Below the pieces are notes generated by a model. The model was not told the origin of the DNA. It worked only from the letters and a program-made list of their open reading frames with translations, and did not search any database. Below, piece after piece: positions 1,630-28,419 of a stretch of DNA of 28,906 bases (position 1 is the stretch's first letter; every line of letters starts with the position of its first letter). Origin of the DNA: a virus. Taxonomy: Duplodnaviria > Heunggongvirae > Uroviricota > Caudoviricetes. The stretch spans positions 1 to 28,906 of the IMG/VR virus record IMGVR_UViG_2548876943_000002. One strand, written 5' to 3'. Position numbers and translations under genes: made by a program.

Positions 1630-1814
1630 ACGCCACAATTCAAACGATACCAGAGCTTCTTATCAAGACACGAGGCAATCAGACCGAAGTGGCGAGGATG
1701 CTTTCCTGCGCAAGAGGAACGGTGCTCAAGTACAACCGAGACAGCAAAGGCGAGCGTCACGTAATAGTTAACGGCGTCCTGATGGTCACGCCAGGCAAAA
1801 AGGGAAGACGATGA
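1626..1814 (+). CDS. ninH: NinH-like small DNA-binding protein
   Basis: 62 aa; TIPELLIKTRGNQTEVARMLSCARGTVLKY...IVNGVLMV aligns with lambda NinH (…YGNQTEVARRLKCSRGTVRKY…IVNDVLMV) as recalled. Confidence 0.7.
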   Translation: MNATIQTIPELLIKTRGNQTEVARMLSCARGTVLKYNRDSKGERHVIVNGVLMVTPGKKGRR

Positions 1815-2329
1815 GCATAAGAGAGCTAAATCTCACCAAAGAACAGCACGAGTGGCTGAATGGCTGGCTTGAACTGTGGGGCGCATGGGTTTATTCAGGT
1901 CGTCTGGAAAAGCGCATGAGCAGCGTAATAGCGAAGTTCATGGAGAGCGTAGAGCCGGGAAGAGTTATGACAAGGCCAATGTGCAATGATGATGATGGAA
2001 TGTTGATTTCTCAGGTCGTCGATTCCGTCATGTACATTGACAAAAAAGCCTTTGGCATCCTCCTCAGCTACTACGCTCATGGTTCATCTAAGCGAGCAAT
2101 TGCATCCTACTATCACGCGACTGCAAAGCCACGCAAGATGTGTGGACGTGGTGGCGAGGGATGGAGAAAACCTTCACTGGCAACCTGTAGAAACGAAATT
2201 GACGACATCCTGAAAGCGTCATTATTTGTTTTATACCAGCCGATGCAAAATGCTTTCAAAATGCGTAAACGTGTTGAGAAAGTTAAGCATGTTGCTGTTA
2301 AAAGCCTTGACATGCAATTAGCCATTTAG
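1811..2329 (+). CDS. Q: Late-gene antiterminator Q (non-lambda Q family, phage 82/21-like)
   Basis: 172 aa in the canonical position just upstream of the late promoter and lysis genes. LELWGAWV and PMCNDDDGMLI motifs resemble Q antiterminators of lambdoid prophages. Start overlaps ninH stop. Confidence 0.7.
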   Translation: MSIRELNLTKEQHEWLNGWLELWGAWVYSGRLEKRMSSVIAKFMESVEPGRVMTRPMCNDDDGMLISQVVDSVMYIDKKAFGILLSYYAHGSSKRAIASYYHATAKPRKMCGRGGEGWRKPSLATCRNEIDDILKASLFVLYQPMQNAFKMRKRVEKVKHVAVKSLDMQLAI

Positions 2330-2336
2330 CCATAAT
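2307..2336 (+). promoter_or_regulatory. Candidate late promoter PR' (-35 TTGACA 2307-2312, 18-nt spacer, -10 CATAAT 2331-2336) overlapping the end of Q
   Basis: Sigma70-like hexamers read directly from the sequence; position at the Q 3' end matches lambdoid late promoter architecture. Confidence 0.45.
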
Positions 2337-2350
2337 TAGAAGGTAAGTTG

Positions 2351-2390
2351 CCGTTAGTGACTCTTAAGTTGCAACGGTGGCTTTTTTATT
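2351..2390 (+). terminator. Candidate tR'-like intrinsic terminator (CCGTT...AACGG stem then GGCTTTTTTATT)
   Basis: Inverted repeat followed by a T-run about 20-50 nt downstream of the candidate PR'. This is the Q-dependent read-through point in lambdoid phages. Confidence 0.4.
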
Positions 2391-2391
2391 T

Positions 2392-2466
2392 GGGTCAGTC
2401 GTATAAAGGTCATTACGGAAGGCTGTTAACCTTCTTATCGTGGTTCGAGTCCACGCTGTCCCGCCA
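2392..2466 (+). tRNA. tRNA-like gene, anticodon loop CUGUUAA (GUU, Asn-like); imperfect acceptor and D stems
   Basis: Manual fold: acceptor GGGTCAG/CTGTCCC (one T-T mismatch), anticodon stem GAAGG/CCTTC, T arm CGTGG-TTCGAGT-CCACG, discriminator G plus CCA. D stem only 3 bp. Confidence 0.45.
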
Positions 2467-2471
2467 AACAT

Positions 2472-2547
2472 GCTGGTTTAGCTCCAATGGTAGAGCAGTC
2501 GCCTTGTAAGCGAATGGGTAGCGGTTCAAGTCCGTTAACCAGCACCA
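2472..2547 (+). tRNA. tRNA, anticodon UGU (Thr) by manual fold
   Basis: Acceptor GCTGGTT/AACCAGC (7 bp), D arm TAGCTC..GAGCA, anticodon loop CTTGTAA, T loop TTCAAGT, 3' ACCA. One G-A mismatch at the base of the anticodon stem. Confidence 0.6.
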
Positions 2548-2790
2548 TAACTGAGCCGTAGCCACTGGCCATCCTGAATTCATCAGTGATAGTTACGCTG
2601 CGGCCTTCTACACATGACCTTCGTGAAAGCGGGTGGCAGGAGGTTGCGCTAACAACCTCACGCCGTTTTGCCCGTGCATATCGGTCACGAACAAATCTGA
2701 TTACTAAACACAGTAGCCTGGATTTGTTCTATCAGTAATCGACCTTATTCCTAATTAAATAGAGCAAATCCCCTTATTGGGGGGTAAGAC

Positions 2791-3114
2791 ATGAAGATGC
2801 CAGAAAAACATGACCTGTTAGCCGCCATTCTCGCGGCAAAGGAACAAGGCATCGGGGCAATCCTTGCGTTTGCAATGGCGTACCTTCGCGGCAGGTATAA
2901 TGGCGGTGCGTTTACAAAAACAGTAATCGACGCAACGATGTGCGCCATTATCGCCTGGTTCATTCGTGACCTTCTCGACTTCGCCGGACTAAGTAGCAAT
3001 CTCGCTTATATAACGAGCGTGTTCATCGGCTACATCGGTACTGACTCGATTGGTTCGCTTATCAAACGCTTCGCTGCTAAAAAAGCCGGAGTAGAAGATG
3101 GTGGAAATCAATAA
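2791..3114 (+). CDS. S: Class I holin S with dual-start motif (Met1-Lys2-Met3)
   Basis: Protein is nearly identical to lambda S as recalled ([39 protein letters not shown]...). Upstream CCCCTTATTGGGGGG hairpin and TAAGACATGAAGATG match the lambda sdi region. Confidence 0.9.
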
Positions 3115-3574
3115 TCAACGTAAGGCGTTCCTCGATATGCTGGCGTGGTCAGAGGGAACTGATAACGGACGGCAGAAAACCAGAAATCATGGTTATGACG
3201 TCATTGTAGGGGGAGAGCTATTCACTGATTACTCCGATCACCCTCGCAAACTTGTCACGCTAAACCCCAAACTCAAATCAACAGCAGCCGGACGTTACCA
3301 GATTCTTTCCCGTTGGTGGGATGCCTACCGCAAGCAACTTGGCCTGAAAGACTTCTCTCCGAAAAGCCAGGACGCTGTGGCACTGCAACAGATTAAAGAG
3401 CGTGGCGCTTTACTGATGATTGATCGCGGTGATATTCGTCAGGCTATCGACCGTTGCAGCAATATCTGGGCTTCACTGCCTGGCGCTGGTTATGGTCAGT
3501 TCGAGCATAAGGCTGACAGCCTGATTGCAAAATTCAAAGAGGCTGGCGGAACGGTCAGAGAGATTGATGTATGA
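3098..3574 (+). CDS. R: Endolysin R (lytic transglycosylase)
   Basis: 158 aa, near-identical to lambda R as recalled ([49 protein letters not shown]...). Confidence 0.9.
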
Positions 3575-21063: not shown

Positions 21064-21131
21064 AGTGGAAGCCCCAACTGCGGGAACAGTCAGGGCTTCG
21101 GTTGTCAGTAAATCCGTGGAGAAAAACCAAC
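21064..21131 (-). ncRNA. sar: Expected location of sar-like antisense RNA (arc-ant intercistronic region); inferred by position only
   Basis: In P22 a small antisense RNA (sar) is transcribed leftward across the ant RBS. Here the arc-ant spacer contains an imperfect hairpin (GAAGCCC...GGGCTTC). Exact ends not determinable. Confidence 0.3.
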
Positions 21132-24896: not shown

Positions 24897-26069
24897 TTGC
24901 TGTTGAAACGCCGTCTTATTATTGCTGCTTCTTTGTTCGTTTTTAACTTATCGTCTGGTTTTGCGGCGGAAAACATTCCTTTTTCACCTCAGCCTCCACA
25001 GATTCATGCCGGGTCCTGGGTACTGATGGATTACACCACCGGTCAGATCCTCACCGCGGGTAATGAGCATCAACAGCGCAATCCCGCCAGCCTGACAAAG
25101 CTGATGACGGGTTATGTCGTGGATCGCGCTATCGATAGTCATCGCATTACGCCAGACGATATTGTCACCGTGGGGCGCGATGCGTGGGCGAAAGATAATC
25201 CGGTGTTTGTCGGTTCTTCACTGATGTTTTTGAAAGAGGGCGATCGCGTATCGGTACGTGATTTAAGCCGTGGTTTAATTGTGGATTCCGGAAATGACGC
25301 TTGTGTTGCTCTGGCTGACTATATTGCCGGTGGGCAACGGCAGTTTGTTGAAATGATGAACAACTATGCCGAGAAGCTGCATCTCAAGGATACGCATTTT
25401 GAAACAGTGCATGGTCTGGATGCACCTGGCCAGCATAGCTCGGCTTATGATTTAGCTGTGCTTTCTCGCGCTATCATCCACGGCGAGCCCGAGTTTTATC
25501 ATATGTACAGTGAGAAAAGTCTCACCTGGAACGGTATCACCCAGCAAAACCGTAACGGGTTGTTGTGGGATAAAACCATGAATGTTGACGGCCTGAAAAC
25601 GGGTCATACTTCTGGTGCCGGGTTTAATCTCATTGCTTCGGCTGTAGATGGGCAGCGTCGTCTCATTGCAGTGGTAATGGGGGCTGACAGTGCAAAAGGT
25701 CGTGAGGAAGAGGCAAGAAAATTACTGCGTTGGGGGCAACAAAACTTTACTACGGTGCAAATTTTGCACCGTGGGAAAAAGGTCGGAACGGAACGCATCT
25801 GGTATGGCGATAAAGAAAATATCGACCTGGGAACGGAACAAGAGTTCTGGATGGTGCTACCGAAAGCCGAAATTCCACATATCAAAGCCAAATATACCCT
25901 TGATGGTAAAGAGCTCACCGCGCCAATTAACGCCCATCAGCGGGTAGGGGAAATTGAACTTTACGACCGTGATAAACAGGTGGCGCACTGGCCGCTGGTT
26001 ACCCTGGAATCTGTCGGGGAAGGCGGCATGTTTTCCCGCCTGAGTGATTATTTCCACCATAAGGCCTGA
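24897..26069 (+). CDS. dacD: D-alanyl-D-alanine carboxypeptidase DacD (PBP6b); TTG start as in the ORF track
   Basis: Protein recognised as E. coli DacD from memory (signal peptide, SxxK motif in NPASLTKLMTGY, SGN motif in DSGNDA). Confidence 0.85.
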   Translation: MLLKRRLIIAASLFVFNLSSGFAAENIPFSPQPPQIHAGSWVLMDYTTGQILTAGNEHQQRNPASLTKLMTGYVVDRAIDSHRITPDDIVTVGRDAWAKDNPVFVGSSLMFLKEGDRVSVRDLSRGLIVDSGNDACVALADYIAGGQRQFVEMMNNYAEKLHLKDTHFETVHGLDAPGQHSSAYDLAVLSRAIIHGEPEFYHMYSEKSLTWNGITQQNRNGLLWDKTMNVDGLKTGHTSGAGFNLIASAVDGQRRLIAVVMGADSAKGREEEARKLLRWGQQNFTTVQILHRGKKVGTERIWYGDKENIDLGTEQEFWMVLPKAEIPHIKAKYTLDGKELTAPINAHQRVGEIELYDRDKQVAHWPLVTLESVGEGGMFSRLSDYFHHKA

Positions 26070-26155
26070 CCTTTCTTTTGCAGCAGACTGGCAGGAGTGC
26101 GAGTCTGCTCGCATAATCAACACTCATTCCTTGTGGTTTTAATTTTGCAACTATA

Positions 26156-26171
26156 CTGTATATAAAAACAG
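26156..26171. promoter_or_regulatory. LexA box (CTGTATATAAAAACAG) upstream of sbmC
   Basis: Perfect CTG-N10-CAG SOS box read from sequence about 17 nt upstream of the sbmC start. sbmC is a known SOS-regulated gene. Confidence 0.8.
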
Positions 26172-26187
26172 TGTTAATGGAGGCGTC

Positions 26188-26661
26188 ATGAACTACGAGA
26201 TTAAGCAGGAAGAGAAACGTACCGTTGCAGGTTTCCATCTCGTTGGTCCGTGGGAACAGACGGTAAAGAAAGGCTTTGAGCAGTTGATGATGTGGGTAGA
26301 TAACAAAAATATTGTGCCGAAGGAGTGGGTTGCTGTCTATTACGACAATCCAGATGAAACACCCGCCGAAAAATTACGCTGCGACACCGTTGTGACGGTA
26401 CCGAATAACTTTACGCTCCCCGAAAACAGTGAGGGCGTTATTCTGACAGAAATTTCAGGTGGTCAGTATGCGGTTGCGGTGGCTCGTGTAGTCGGTGATG
26501 ATTTTGCTAAACCCTGGTATCAGTTCTTTAATAGCCTCTTGCAGGACAGTGCTTATGAAATGTTACCAAAGCCCTGCTTCGAGGTTTATTTGAACAATGG
26601 CGCGGAAGATGGGTACTGGGATATCGAAATGTATGTTGCGGTGCAGCCAAAACATCACTAA
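26188..26661 (+). CDS. sbmC: DNA gyrase inhibitor SbmC (GyrI)
   Basis: 157 aa; recognised as E. coli SbmC from memory ([26 protein letters not shown]...). Confidence 0.85.
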
Positions 26662-26859
26662 TTCATCTCAGGGCGGTGTGTTAACGCGATGACCACTCTT
26701 TTTTTTGAAAGCGAAAAGAGTAAGATGCGCCTTTCAATTTTTTCGCTCCTGCCGGGAAATTACACTGTTCCCGGTATGTCCGTCGGATAACTCAGAGGCG
26801 CGCCTTCTGGCCGACAGATGTGTTATGAGCGCTTTTAATCTTCATTACGGAGTTTCTGC

Positions 26860-27918
26860 GTGCGTGCCGATAAGTCATTAAGCCCGTTTGAAATCCGGGT
26901 ATACCGCCATTACCGCATTGTGCATGGTACTCGGGTCGCGCTGGCATTCCTGCTCACTTTTCTCATTATCCGCCTGTTTACTATCCCGGAAAGCACCTGG
27001 CCGCTGGTCACCATGGTGGTGATTATGGGGCCAATCTCGTTCTGGGGTAACGTTGTCCCTCGCGCCTTTGAGCGTATTGGCGGTACGGTGTTGGGTTCGA
27101 TTTTAGGTCTTATCGCTCTGCAACTGGAGTTAATCTCGTTACCGCTGATGTTAGTCTGGTGCGCGGCGGCCATGTTCCTTTGCGGTTGGCTGGCGCTGGG
27201 CAAGAAACCGTATCAAGGTTTATTGATTGGGGTGACGCTGGCAATTGTTGTTGGTTCCCCGACAGGTGAAATTGATACGGCGTTATGGCGAAGCGGCGAT
27301 GTGATCCTCGGCTCTTTACTGGCAATGTTGTTTACCGGTATCTGGCCACAACGGGCGTTCATCCACTGGCGCATTCAACTGGCGAAAAGTCTGACCGAGT
27401 ATAATCGGGTCTATCAATCTGCATTCTCACCGAACTTACTCGAACGCCCACGTCTGGAAAGCCATCTACAAAAACTCCTGACCGATGCCGTGAAAATGCG
27501 TGGGCTGATTGCGCCCGCCAGCAAAGAAACCCGTATTCCAAAATCGATATATGAAGGTATCCAGACCATTAACCGCAATCTGGTTTGTATGCTGGAGTTG
27601 CAAATCAATGCGTACTGGGCCACGCGCCCCAGCCATTTCGTGTTATTGAACGCGCAAAAACTTCGTGATACCCAGCACATGATGCAGCAAATACTGCTGA
27701 GCCTTGTTCATGCGCTGTACGAAGGTAATCCGCAGCCGGTTTTTGCCAATACGGAAAAATTGAACGATGCTGTGGAAGAGCTGCGTCAGTTGCTCAATAA
27801 CCACCATGACCTGAAGGTAGTGGAAACACCAATCTATGGTTATGTGTGGCTGAACATGGAAACGGCGCATCAGCTTGAGTTGCTATCGAATCTGATTTGC
27901 CGGGCCTTGCGCAAATAA
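26860..27918 (+). CDS. yeeA: Inner-membrane protein YeeA (FUSC-family-like), GTG start
   Basis: 352 aa with multiple TM helices in the N-terminal half; recognised as E. coli YeeA from memory. Confidence 0.8.
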   Translation: MRADKSLSPFEIRVYRHYRIVHGTRVALAFLLTFLIIRLFTIPESTWPLVTMVVIMGPISFWGNVVPRAFERIGGTVLGSILGLIALQLELISLPLMLVWCAAAMFLCGWLALGKKPYQGLLIGVTLAIVVGSPTGEIDTALWRSGDVILGSLLAMLFTGIWPQRAFIHWRIQLAKSLTEYNRVYQSAFSPNLLERPRLESHLQKLLTDAVKMRGLIAPASKETRIPKSIYEGIQTINRNLVCMLELQINAYWATRPSHFVLLNAQKLRDTQHMMQQILLSLVHALYEGNPQPVFANTEKLNDAVEELRQLLNNHHDLKVVETPIYGYVWLNMETAHQLELLSNLICRALRK

Positions 27919-28089
27919 TTCCTGAACTTCAGAATCATCTTGCTGCTGCTTCGATTCAGCAAGGATAAAGGGTATGATAGTGAAAAGGGATAAAAGCATT
28001 GTCATCTGCGGCAGCTATGAGTAATGTTGGCCCTAACGAATAGCGGTTGCTTAAACGAATCCGACTCTCACATTATCAGGGGTATAAAA

Positions 28090-28419
28090 ATGGAAACTAC
28101 CAAGCCTTCATTCCAGGACGTACTGGAATTTGTTCGTCTGTTCCGTCGTAAGAACAAACTGCAACGTGAAATTCAGGACGTTGAGAAAAAGATCCGTGAC
28201 AACCAGAAGCGCGTCCTGTTGCTGGACAACCTGAGCGATTACATCAAGCCAGGGATGAGCGTTGAAGCAATCCAGGGCATCATCGCCAGCATGAAAGGTG
28301 ACTATGAAGATCGCGTTGACGATTACATCATCAAAAATGCCGAGCTCTCCAAAGAACGCCGCGATATCTCCAAAAAGCTGAAAGCTATGGGCGAAATGAA
28401 AAACGGCGAAGCGAAGTAA
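28090..28419 (+). CDS. yeeX: YeeX (UPF0265/DUF496) small coiled-coil protein
   Basis: [48 protein letters not shown]... recognised from memory. ATG at 28090 chosen over the track start at 28024. Confidence 0.8.

Follow-up and report, generated by a model that had tools for sequence, protein, structure and literature searches.

Between the late antiterminator gene Q and the holin gene of a P22-like phage, two tRNA-like genes stand in tandem, only a few nucleotides apart. Their position at the head of the late operon raises the question of what they do for the phage: whether both are functional tRNA genes, how they are expressed, and whether they supply codons for late proteins, replace host tRNAs destroyed by defence nucleases or are simply carried along. 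Here, we analyzed this locus in a 28.9-kb stretch of phage DNA (hereafter the window, that is, the whole stretch that was examined).

The window belongs to a P22-like mosaic phage or prophage of the HK620/Sf6-like type. Its virion genes were 95-97% identical to those of vB_EcoP-611R6, HK620 and Sf6, and the P22 immI sar RNA could be identified in it by Rfam. No single matched record covered more than 66% of the window, which points to a mosaic structure elsewhere than at the tRNA locus.

Layout of the tRNA locus

The features of the locus are shown in Table 1. The tRNA pair lies between Q, whose homologue is annotated in both Sf6 and phage L, and the holin gene, with which the lysis cassette begins and which is also the first gene in the late operon to encode a protein; the annotation of Sf6 shows the same layout. 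A first-pass annotation, made by eye, had proposed two tandem tRNA genes between Q and the holin gene, and ARAGORN and Rfam both agreed. The coordinates that it gave for the two genes, their anticodons (GUU and UGU) and the 5-nt gap were reproduced exactly by ARAGORN, which found exactly two tRNA genes in the whole 28.9-kb window, both on the + strand. Its remark that tRNA genes are known at this late-transcribed position in lambdoid phages was also borne out, since the identical pair is annotated in phage 21, Sf6 and BTP1. Thus, the pair is already known and annotated, both in the GenBank records of these three phages and in E. coli prophages in RefSeq. The Stx phage 933W presumably has another tRNA cassette, ileZ-argN-argO, at the junction of Q and the lysis genes.

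Table 1. Positions of the features at the late leader of the window
Feature	Position	Strand	Basis or description
Q, late-gene antiterminator (Sf6 gene 59/phage-L type; related to phage 21 Q)	1811..2329	+	PHROG phrog_943 'anti-termination protein Q-like', E 1.8e-93
pR' late promoter	2307..2336	+	-35 TTGACA 2307-2312, 18-nt spacer, -10 CATAAT 2331-2336
tR' late-leader intrinsic terminator	2345..2391	+	Hairpin 2345-2383, U-tract to 2391
tRNA-Asn, anticodon GUU, 75 nt	2392..2466	+	ARAGORN, Rfam, covariation, identity to phage 21 copy
5-nt spacer AACAT	2467..2471	+	AATAT in about half of copies
tRNA-Thr, anticodon UGU, 76 nt	2472..2547	+	ARAGORN, Rfam, covariation, identity to phage 21 and HK446 copies
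Imperfect hairpin directly 3' of tRNA-Thr	2555..2604	+	Fold
Holin, lambda S-like	2791..3114	+	ORF; homologues annotated as holin in Sf6 and HK446

Structure and conservation of the two tRNA genes

Both genes matched the tRNA family of Rfam (RF00005, gathering score 29 bits) over model positions 1-71 of 71, with 55.3 bits (E = 1.5e-9) for tRNA-Asn and 61.5 bits (E = 3.1e-11) for tRNA-Thr, and both encode the 3' CCA. tRNA-Asn has discriminator G, the anticodon arm GAAGG/CUGUUAA/CCUUC and all of the tertiary nucleotides (U8, A14, G18-G19, U33, a purine at 37 and the T-loop). The weakened stems that had been noticed by eye in this gene could be assigned to two mismatches, one in the acceptor stem (U4.U68) and one in the D stem (U13.U22). 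tRNA-Thr has discriminator A, the pairs G1-C72 and C2-G71 and the anticodon arm GUCGC/CUUGUAA/GCGAA, and its conserved tertiary nucleotides are complete but for C at position 14, where A is expected. This second gene had been described as a Thr tRNA with canonical features; the anticodon stood, whereas the description as wholly canonical did not, given C14 and the fact that G27.A43, at the base of the anticodon stem, is a mismatch.

The AsnRS identity set, which we take to be G34-U35-U36 and discriminator G73, is present in the window tRNA-Asn, as in host asnT, and the ThrRS set, presumably G1-C72, C2-G71, G35 and U36, is present in the window tRNA-Thr. With these identity elements of the E. 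coli enzymes, both tRNAs are predicted to be charged in the host. Decoding of ACA has been reported for phage Thr(UGU) tRNAs (PMC12445682).

Comparison with the host tRNAs showed that the anticodon loops of both phage tRNAs are exactly those of the host, whereas the stems are strongly diverged. tRNA-Asn was identical to host asnT at 44 of 75 positions. When tRNA-Thr was compared with host thrU, the anticodon stem was the most diverged part (2 matches in 10 positions), whereas the D stem matched completely (8/8 by alignment count).

We then examined covariation in a sample of about 120 copies. Among the 18 distinct variants of tRNA-Asn, six base pairs had changed on both sides with pairing kept, giving 19 double-change cells against 6.2 in shuffles (0 of 500 as high); for tRNA-Thr (22 distinct variants), eight pairs and 16 cells were found against 2.8 in shuffles, again with none of the 500 as high. 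Across the tests of the two genes, 0-2 of 500 shuffles were as high as the observed values, and slid controls gave 0-2 pairs. The unusual positions were themselves conserved: U13.U22 was found in all 18 variants of tRNA-Asn and U4.U68 in 16 of them, whereas G27.A43 was present in 21 of the 22 variants of tRNA-Thr, which also carried C2-G71 (22/22) and G1-C72 (21/22). The anticodon loop of tRNA-Asn was invariant except for two singleton variants. Because of the E-values and the compensatory substitutions among relatives, chance can be excluded for both tRNA genes.

The first-pass annotation had considered the first gene perhaps degenerate, and a decayed tRNA pseudogene would indeed be expected to show mismatches such as U4.U68 and U13.U22. 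A single-sequence fold of this gene was also barely better than shuffles (z -1.7), a score that host asnT shares. However, the Rfam score lies 26 bits above the threshold, the six covarying pairs and the retention of both mismatches among the 18 variants are not those of a decaying gene, and the CCA, U8, the equivalents of G18-G19, U33, A37 and the T-loop UUCGAGU are all there. Moreover, the gene is 100% identical across phages with differing flanks. We therefore consider a pseudogene very improbable. The stem mismatches of tRNA-Asn are conserved features rather than decay, and both genes are structurally constrained, functional tRNA genes.

The late leader and the expression of the tRNAs

The sequence and order of the elements upstream of the pair fit the lambdoid late-operon leader (pR', qut/QBE, tR'), with a strong sigma-70 promoter just after Q and an intrinsic terminator within ~50 nt. 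In the annotations of Sf6 and phage 21, the order is likewise pR', qut/Q-binding site, tR', tRNA-Asn, tRNA-Thr and lysis genes. The pR' of the window matched the consensus at 11 of 12 positions and was the only strong + strand site within 1800-3200 in a consensus scan. It overlaps the 3' end of Q, and the same stretch is annotated as pR' in Sf6. Where phage 21 has its Q-binding element (as taken from the phage 21 annotation and the phage L paper), the spacer contains the direct repeat AATTAGCC/ATTTAGCC (2316-2331), which may be bound by Q. Alignment to the annotated start site of phage 21 places the start of the transcript near 2343. In the alignment with phage 21, similarity sets in only at the transcription start (~2344 in the window); Q and the repeats located between -35 and -10 differ from those of phage 21 in specificity type, a difference that was also discussed by the phage L authors.

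The tR' hairpin had a predicted energy of -17.7 kcal/mol (z -4.4), and none of 200 shuffles was equally stable in the RNA fold. It is invariant across the window, Sf6, phage 21 and phage L, and the annotations of Sf6 and phage 21 name it tR'. The first base of tRNA-Asn is the next base after the end of the U-tract (2391), and this junction, TTTTTTATTT followed by GGGTCAG, is kept behind the lambda-type tR' of HK446 and in other leader variants.

On the basis of this arrangement, RNA polymerase would start at pR' and normally stop at tR', one base before tRNA-Asn, whereas Q-modified polymerase would read through tR' into the tRNA genes. Both tRNAs would then be cut from the late transcript by RNase P and the host 3' trimming enzymes, and the mature tRNAs would be charged by host AsnRS and ThrRS. 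We infer Q-dependent read-through with such processing as the expression route; the phage L authors considered either excision from the late mRNA or an own promoter and left the choice undecided. In the transcriptomic study of BTP1, the two tRNA genes were set apart in the list of highly expressed prophage genes and the lytic operon was placed directly after them, from which no more can be taken than that the tRNAs are expressed and the lytic operon begins right behind them.

The imperfect hairpin downstream of tRNA-Thr travels with the cassette within a conserved block (2548-2609). Similarity to the window ended at +62 in 22 of 94 loci, and the match to phage 21 ends at window position 2609. 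In phage-21-type copies, a U-run follows the hairpin and makes a terminator-like site, whereas the window copy has no U-run. When this hairpin was submitted to the covariation test, no clean compensatory pairs were found, and substitutions fell mostly in bulges and loops.

Distribution of the cassette in phages and prophages

A 321-bp region around the pair had matches in 96 phage records, many of them with both tRNAs annotated. The 156-bp pair was 100% identical in phage 21 and in the Salmonella phages S135 and P6, and both tRNA genes are present in phage 21, Sf6 and HK446 without a single base difference. Among 5,426 complete E. coli genomes, the pair was present in 369 (~7%), where RefSeq labels the genes tRNA-Asn and tRNA-Thr. 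A scan with a 20-nt pattern from the D arm of tRNA-Asn revealed 126 loci, 100 of which had the Asn-Thr architecture; others were Asn-Gly(UCC) (8 loci) and Klebsiella-type Asn-Phe-Thr-Arg(UCU) sets. It should be noted that the constancy of tRNA-Asn among the 126 loci is partly an ascertainment effect, since the scan pattern lies inside this gene. The 'tRNA-Leu(UAA)' of phage L, at the position of tRNA-Thr, was not called by ARAGORN.

Close relatives at the locus are Sf6, BTP1, HK620-like and other P22-like phages (Lederbergvirus) with an annotated tRNA-Asn/tRNA-Thr pair, in which the region 2300-2620, including Q, pR', tR' and both tRNAs, was 97-98% identical, and we observed no relevant difference at the tRNA locus for Sf6, BTP1 and the HK620-like phages. 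In phage 21, both tRNAs, the tR' hairpin and 62 nt downstream were 100% identical, and the order of promoter, terminator, tRNA-Asn, tRNA-Thr and lysis genes is the same; however, this phage has a 21-type Q, different Q-binding repeats and a pinholin, whereas the window has an Sf6/L-type Q and a lambda-S holin, and phage 21 also keeps the U-run after the downstream hairpin. In HK446, the Asn and Thr genes are identical, as is the region that extends to the holin gene, whereas Q, pR' and tR' upstream are of lambda type. The Klebsiella Asn-Phe-Thr-Arg and the Asn-Gly(UCC) cassettes are found at the equivalent place downstream of Q and tR'; the tRNA-Asn and tRNA-Thr of Klebsiella are homologous to those of the window and differ from them by compensatory changes, and the tRNA set is different. 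The cassette could thus be found across P22-like phages, phage 21, the HK97-like HK446 and Klebsiella phages, which have different modules. It consists of tR', tRNA-Asn(GUU), tRNA-Thr(UGU) and a short hairpin, and is a mobile cassette in the untranslated leader of the late operon.

HK446 has been described as having a 'single' tRNA (bioRxiv 10.64898/2026.07.10.737580), and its GenBank record has no tRNA features. ARAGORN identified the identical tRNA-Asn gene in this phage, which was overlooked both in the annotation and in the account of the preprint.

For HK446, compensation for a host tRNA gene disrupted by integration has also been suggested, as many temperate phages integrate into tRNA genes (bioRxiv 10.64898/2026.07.10.737580). 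In the window, however, the cassette is located in the late leader, ~22 kb from the right-hand end of the late region, and not at an attachment site. An intact thrW is restored when P22-type phages integrate, the host possesses four asn genes, and the same cassette occurs in phage families with different modules. Thus, compensation for integration is hardly conceivable as the reason for this pair.

tRNA-Thr as a nuclease-resistant replacement

Recent work has shown that in P2-lambda interference, P2 OLD, a Toprim nuclease encoded by the prophage, kills infected cells through cleavage of host tRNA-Thr(UGU) (Govande et al., NAR 2025, PMC12445682). In host tRNA-ThrU, the enzyme cuts between positions 28 and 29 and between 40 and 41, and it needs the paired motif C28-N-G30/C40-N-G42 as well as A37 (PMC12445682). 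Rescue by phage Thr(UGU) tRNAs rests on their resistance to cleavage and on their replacement of the lost host tRNA. [quoted passage not shown] The Thr(UGU) tRNA of HK446 likewise brought plaquing of OLD-sensitive phages back to near wild type (bioRxiv 10.64898/2026.07.10.737580).

The window tRNA-Thr is base for base tRNA-Thr21 and is also 100% identical to the tRNA-Thr of HK446. The exact sequence has therefore already been tested in two studies, and is OLD-resistant and rescuing when expressed from a plasmid. The features on which resistance depends are all present in the window copy: the UGU anticodon, the altered CNG motif (UCG/CGA, with C28U and G42A, against CUG/CAG with five pairs in host thrU) and the stem shortened by G27.A43. 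Because U28-A42 replaces C28-G42 and G27.A43 shortens the stem, tRNA-Thr is expected to survive OLD and keep ACA codons readable. In the native phage, it would thus replace the host tRNA-Thr(UGU) cut by OLD, and the ACA codons of the late genes would stay readable. At least one ACA codon occurs in 18 of the 19 late genes counted.

Several points count against this benefit in the native phage. One ACA codon is also found in Q, and a tRNA-Thr that is made only late would be of no help before Q is made. In all functional tests, tRNA-Thr was expressed from plasmids, and rescue by phage tRNAs was partial (small colonies), with neither lambda itself nor OLD toxicity in recB cells being rescued. HK446 also encodes an OLD inhibitor protein, Oad2, and the authors are sceptical that the phage counters OLD chiefly by means of the tRNA (bioRxiv 10.64898/2026.07.10.737580).

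We also searched the ORFs near the right end of the window (24.9-28.4 kb) for an OLD trigger or RecBCD inhibitor and obtained one PHROG 'peptidase' match and three ORFs without a match. The early-left region apparently lies outside the window.

The role of tRNA-Asn

Any role of the neighbouring tRNA-Asn is more tentative, as the published functional tests concern tRNA-Thr. AriB, the nuclease of PARIS, attacks host tRNA-Asn(GUU) as a secondary target that is nevertheless of biological relevance. AriB cuts between nucleotides 40 and 41 beside the motif U36-A-A-U39 (PMC12409363), and a change of U39 abolishes its cleavage of tRNA-Lys. Host tRNA-Asn is cleaved by P2 OLD as well, at a lower rate than ThrU, and Asn is absent from the OLD targets that were depleted more than 2-fold (bioRxiv 10.64898/2026.07.10.737580).

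Both cleavage motifs are present in host tRNA-Asn (CGG/CCG, and UAAUC followed by C at the AriB cut), whereas the phage tRNA-Asn has neither (AAG/CUU, and UAACC followed by U): the C28-G42 pair is gone from the OLD motif, and U39 from the AriB motif. The latter motif is also absent from the window tRNA-Thr, which has UAAGC followed by G where the host has UAAUC followed by A. Altered surroundings of the cut between 40 and 41 and loss of U36-A-A-U39 are what distinguishes tRNAs that evade AriB (PMC12409363), and by sequence both tRNAs of the window are of this kind. Since host tRNA-Asn is a secondary target of both OLD and AriB and the phage copy has neither motif, tRNA-Asn most likely follows the same counter-defence logic as tRNA-Thr. 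On the other hand, the motif losses may be plain divergence, because the whole sequence of tRNA-Asn has diverged from that of the host, and the C28-G42 pair is restored in Klebsiella-type variants of tRNA-Asn, which counts against an anti-OLD role for this tRNA.

AriB targets three isoacceptors, two of which are Thr(UGU) and Asn(GUU), and the window tRNAs differ from those of the host at positions 39 and 41 beside the cut, as does the tRNA-Lys variant of phage T5 (U39A, A41C). However, T5 is a virulent phage with a large tRNA array, and its tRNA-Lys is required for rescue (PMC12409363), whereas tRNA-Lys(UUU), the main target of PARIS, was not found among the two tRNA genes called by ARAGORN in the window, the rest of the phage genome lying outside it. 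In Burman et al. (2024), we found nothing relevant on PARIS activity against lambdoid phages.

Judging from these motif comparisons, the pair could form a two-part cassette against Toprim tRNases, in which tRNA-Asn would be a second cleavage-resistant replacement for a host tRNA and the position behind tR' would deliver both tRNAs at the time when late proteins have to be synthesized while the tRNAs of the host cell are under destruction. We put this forward only tentatively, as one possible reading with somewhat less than an even chance of being right.

Alternatively, tRNA-Asn might be a passenger, functional or half-functional, that is kept by its linkage to tRNA-Thr and to the terminator junction and has no selected role of its own. 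Its two stem mismatches, the fact that it went unnoticed in HK446 and the fact that Asn alone never scored in tRNA rescue screens would all agree with this. However, six of its pairs show compensatory double changes, its anticodon loop is near-invariant, and RefSeq annotates it in E. coli prophages. In addition, tRNA-Asn is kept where its neighbour is Gly(UCC) or Phe or has been replaced (phage L), although these loci were found via the Asn pattern and are biased accordingly. We consider a mere passenger less likely than not, and a share in the counter-defence function of tRNA-Thr remains the reading that we prefer for tRNA-Asn.

A tandem tRNA-Asn/tRNA-Thr(UGU) is also found in P1, a temperate coliphage, with the same isoacceptors in the same order, 2 nt apart, and a tRNA-Thr that is ~80% identical. 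In P1, however, the pair is located between ban and plp and not in a late leader, the CNG pair and all five base pairs of the stem are retained in tRNA-Thr, and tRNA-Asn has the AriB-type motif UAAUCA. A rule that Asn and Thr together always mean an anti-Toprim function was dropped, as the P1 pair does not have the same motif losses.

Codon usage of the late genes

According to the classical view, which is compatible with a role in defence, phage tRNAs top up the host pool. Here, the two tRNAs would supplement the supply for the ACA and AAC/AAU codons of abundant late proteins, independently of any defence system. We counted the codons of 19 late genes (5,775 codons) and compared them with a sample of ordinary K-12 genes and with ribosomal/EF genes. 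Of the Thr codons, ACA accounted for 28% in the late genes, 19% in the ordinary K-12 genes and 7% in the ribosomal/EF genes (16.1, 12.6 and 3.6 per 1000 codons, respectively), which gives the late genes ratios of 1.28 and 4.5 to the two host sets. Asn codons amounted to 52.5 per 1000 in the late genes, against 45.3 in ordinary K-12 and 32.9 in ribosomal/EF genes. These values and the position of the tRNAs at the head of the late operon are in line with supplementation, which was also proposed for Asn by the phage L authors; in phage L, 24 of the 25 Asn codons of the coat gene are AAC.

However, the enrichment of ACA (1.28) and AAC (1.31) is outranked by that of AGA, AGG, AAG, GGA, TCA, CCA and ATA, and AAT is not enriched. 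The coat gene of the window has 17 AAC and 10 AAT codons. The close relative P22, which has no tRNA genes at all, has 53.6 Asn codons per 1000 in the same late genes, against 53.9 in the window, and 13.1 ACA codons per 1000 against 16.1 (70 and 86 codons, respectively). Since usage is similar in a phage without the tRNA genes, codon use does not track carriage of the cassette. Furthermore, additional copies of the host's own tRNA-ThrU protected little or not at all against OLD, which shows that supply alone is not the basis of the activity tested. Codon supply may contribute, but it is weakly supported and insufficient as an explanation, and we think it quite improbable that the pair is there for this purpose.

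Implications for counter-defence in temperate phages

Taken together, the best explanation for this locus, and in our view a highly probable one, is that the late leader carries two functional tRNA genes, with tRNA-Thr serving as a nuclease-resistant stand-in for its host counterpart and tRNA-Asn probably belonging to the same counter-defence logic. As an annotation, the two genes are routine, and it is their recent reinterpretation that gives the locus its value. P2 OLD is the agent behind the 50-year-old puzzle of P2-lambda interference, and the tRNA-Thr of the window is one of the few tRNAs of temperate phages for which counter-defence activity has been demonstrated. With its presence in ~7% of E. 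coli genomes, the cassette may affect prophage induction and superinfection in strains that carry P2-like prophages or PARIS.

Late promoter and the tRNA-Thr to holin stretch

Between the -35 and -10 elements of the late promoter pR', the window carries a direct repeat (see table). The Q-binding elements of phage 21, ATTGAGCA/AATGAGCA, occupy the same position but differ in sequence, which would be consistent with a difference in Q specificity between the two phages. The mosaic joint between the window and phage 21 was located at the transcription start.

On the other side of the tRNA genes, the 243 nt from tRNA-Thr to the holin start (window 2548-2790) had a predicted folding energy of -83.8 kcal/mol and were far more stable than shuffled sequences (z -4.8). 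The first 62 nt 3' of tRNA-Thr, which include a hairpin at 2555-2604, formed a block linked to the cassette, as they were also present at loci with different downstream sequence. In phage-21-type copies, the equivalent hairpin is followed by a U-run, giving a second, terminator-like site, whereas no such run follows it in the window. Clean compensatory changes in this hairpin were looked for among the loci, and none were seen.

Elsewhere in the window, Rfam matched 21064-21131 on the minus strand to sar, an antisense RNA from the immI region of P22 (91.5 bits, E 1.7e-18). 3' of the tailspike gene, the ORF at 24897-26069 matched PHROG 5304 'peptidase' (E 1.6e-194), and three others at 26188-26661, 26860-27918 and 28024-28419 had no PHROG family match. 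The ORFs at 24897-28419 may be cargo or host-flank genes.

Related tRNA genes in other phages

Phage HK446 has both tRNA genes of the cassette, neither of which is annotated in its GenBank entry (JQ086372); the 2026 preprint that tested its tRNA-Thr describes this phage as encoding a single tRNA (10.64898/2026.07.10.737580). A lambda-type Q/pR'/tR' precedes the cassette in HK446, unlike in the window, and despite this leader the junction between TTTTTTATTT and GGGTCAG is unchanged.

Phage L/ST64T-type phages have an Asn gene identical to that of the window, and their second gene diverges from the window tRNA-Thr from the D-loop onward. ARAGORN made no call for this second gene in phage L; the gene may encode a tRNA that is non-canonical, has decayed or has replaced the original one. 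P1 also carries an Asn/Thr tandem, in a genomic context unrelated to that of the window; the OLD-type CNG pair is retained in its Thr gene and an AriB-type UAAUCA is present in its Asn gene.

Coordinates of the promoter repeat and of tRNA genes in the compared phages
Feature	Sequence	Positions	Remark
Direct repeat AATTAGCC/ATTTAGCC	window	2316-2331	between -35 and -10 of pR'
HK446 tRNA-Asn	L136 (JQ086372)	821-895	identical to window tRNA-Asn
HK446 tRNA-Thr	L136 (JQ086372)	901-976	directly 3' of HK446 tRNA-Asn
Phage L second gene	L005	781-852	72 nt, annotated tRNA-Leu(UAA)
P1 tRNA-Asn(GUU)	L007	1425-1500	tandem, 2 nt before P1 tRNA-Thr
P1 tRNA-Thr(UGU)	L007	1503-1578	second of tandem

Variation behind the Asn gene

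Among the retrieved viral loci, the same Asn gene also came first in an Asn-Gly(UCC) cassette (eight loci) and in an Asn-Phe(GAA)-Thr-Arg(UCU) cassette, and one further cassette behind it had Gly(UCC) added. The 2026 preprint names Gly(UCC) as one of the host tRNAs that OLD depletes most strongly (10.64898/2026.07.10.737580). The GGA codon was 1.8-fold over-used in the late genes of the window.

A14 is nearly universal in tRNAs and pairs with U8. Position 14 of the window tRNA-Thr (2472-2547) is C, and U in a few variants; published rescue experiments indicate that tRNA-Thr with C14 is functional (PMC12445682; 10.64898/2026.07.10.737580). One copy among the viral contig loci was a chimeric Thr gene, phage-type in its 5' part to position 26 and matching host thrU in its anticodon arm and 3' part. 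It was the only Thr variant with 27:43 fully paired. Judged from its sequence, this copy suggests that phage and host tRNA genes have recombined.
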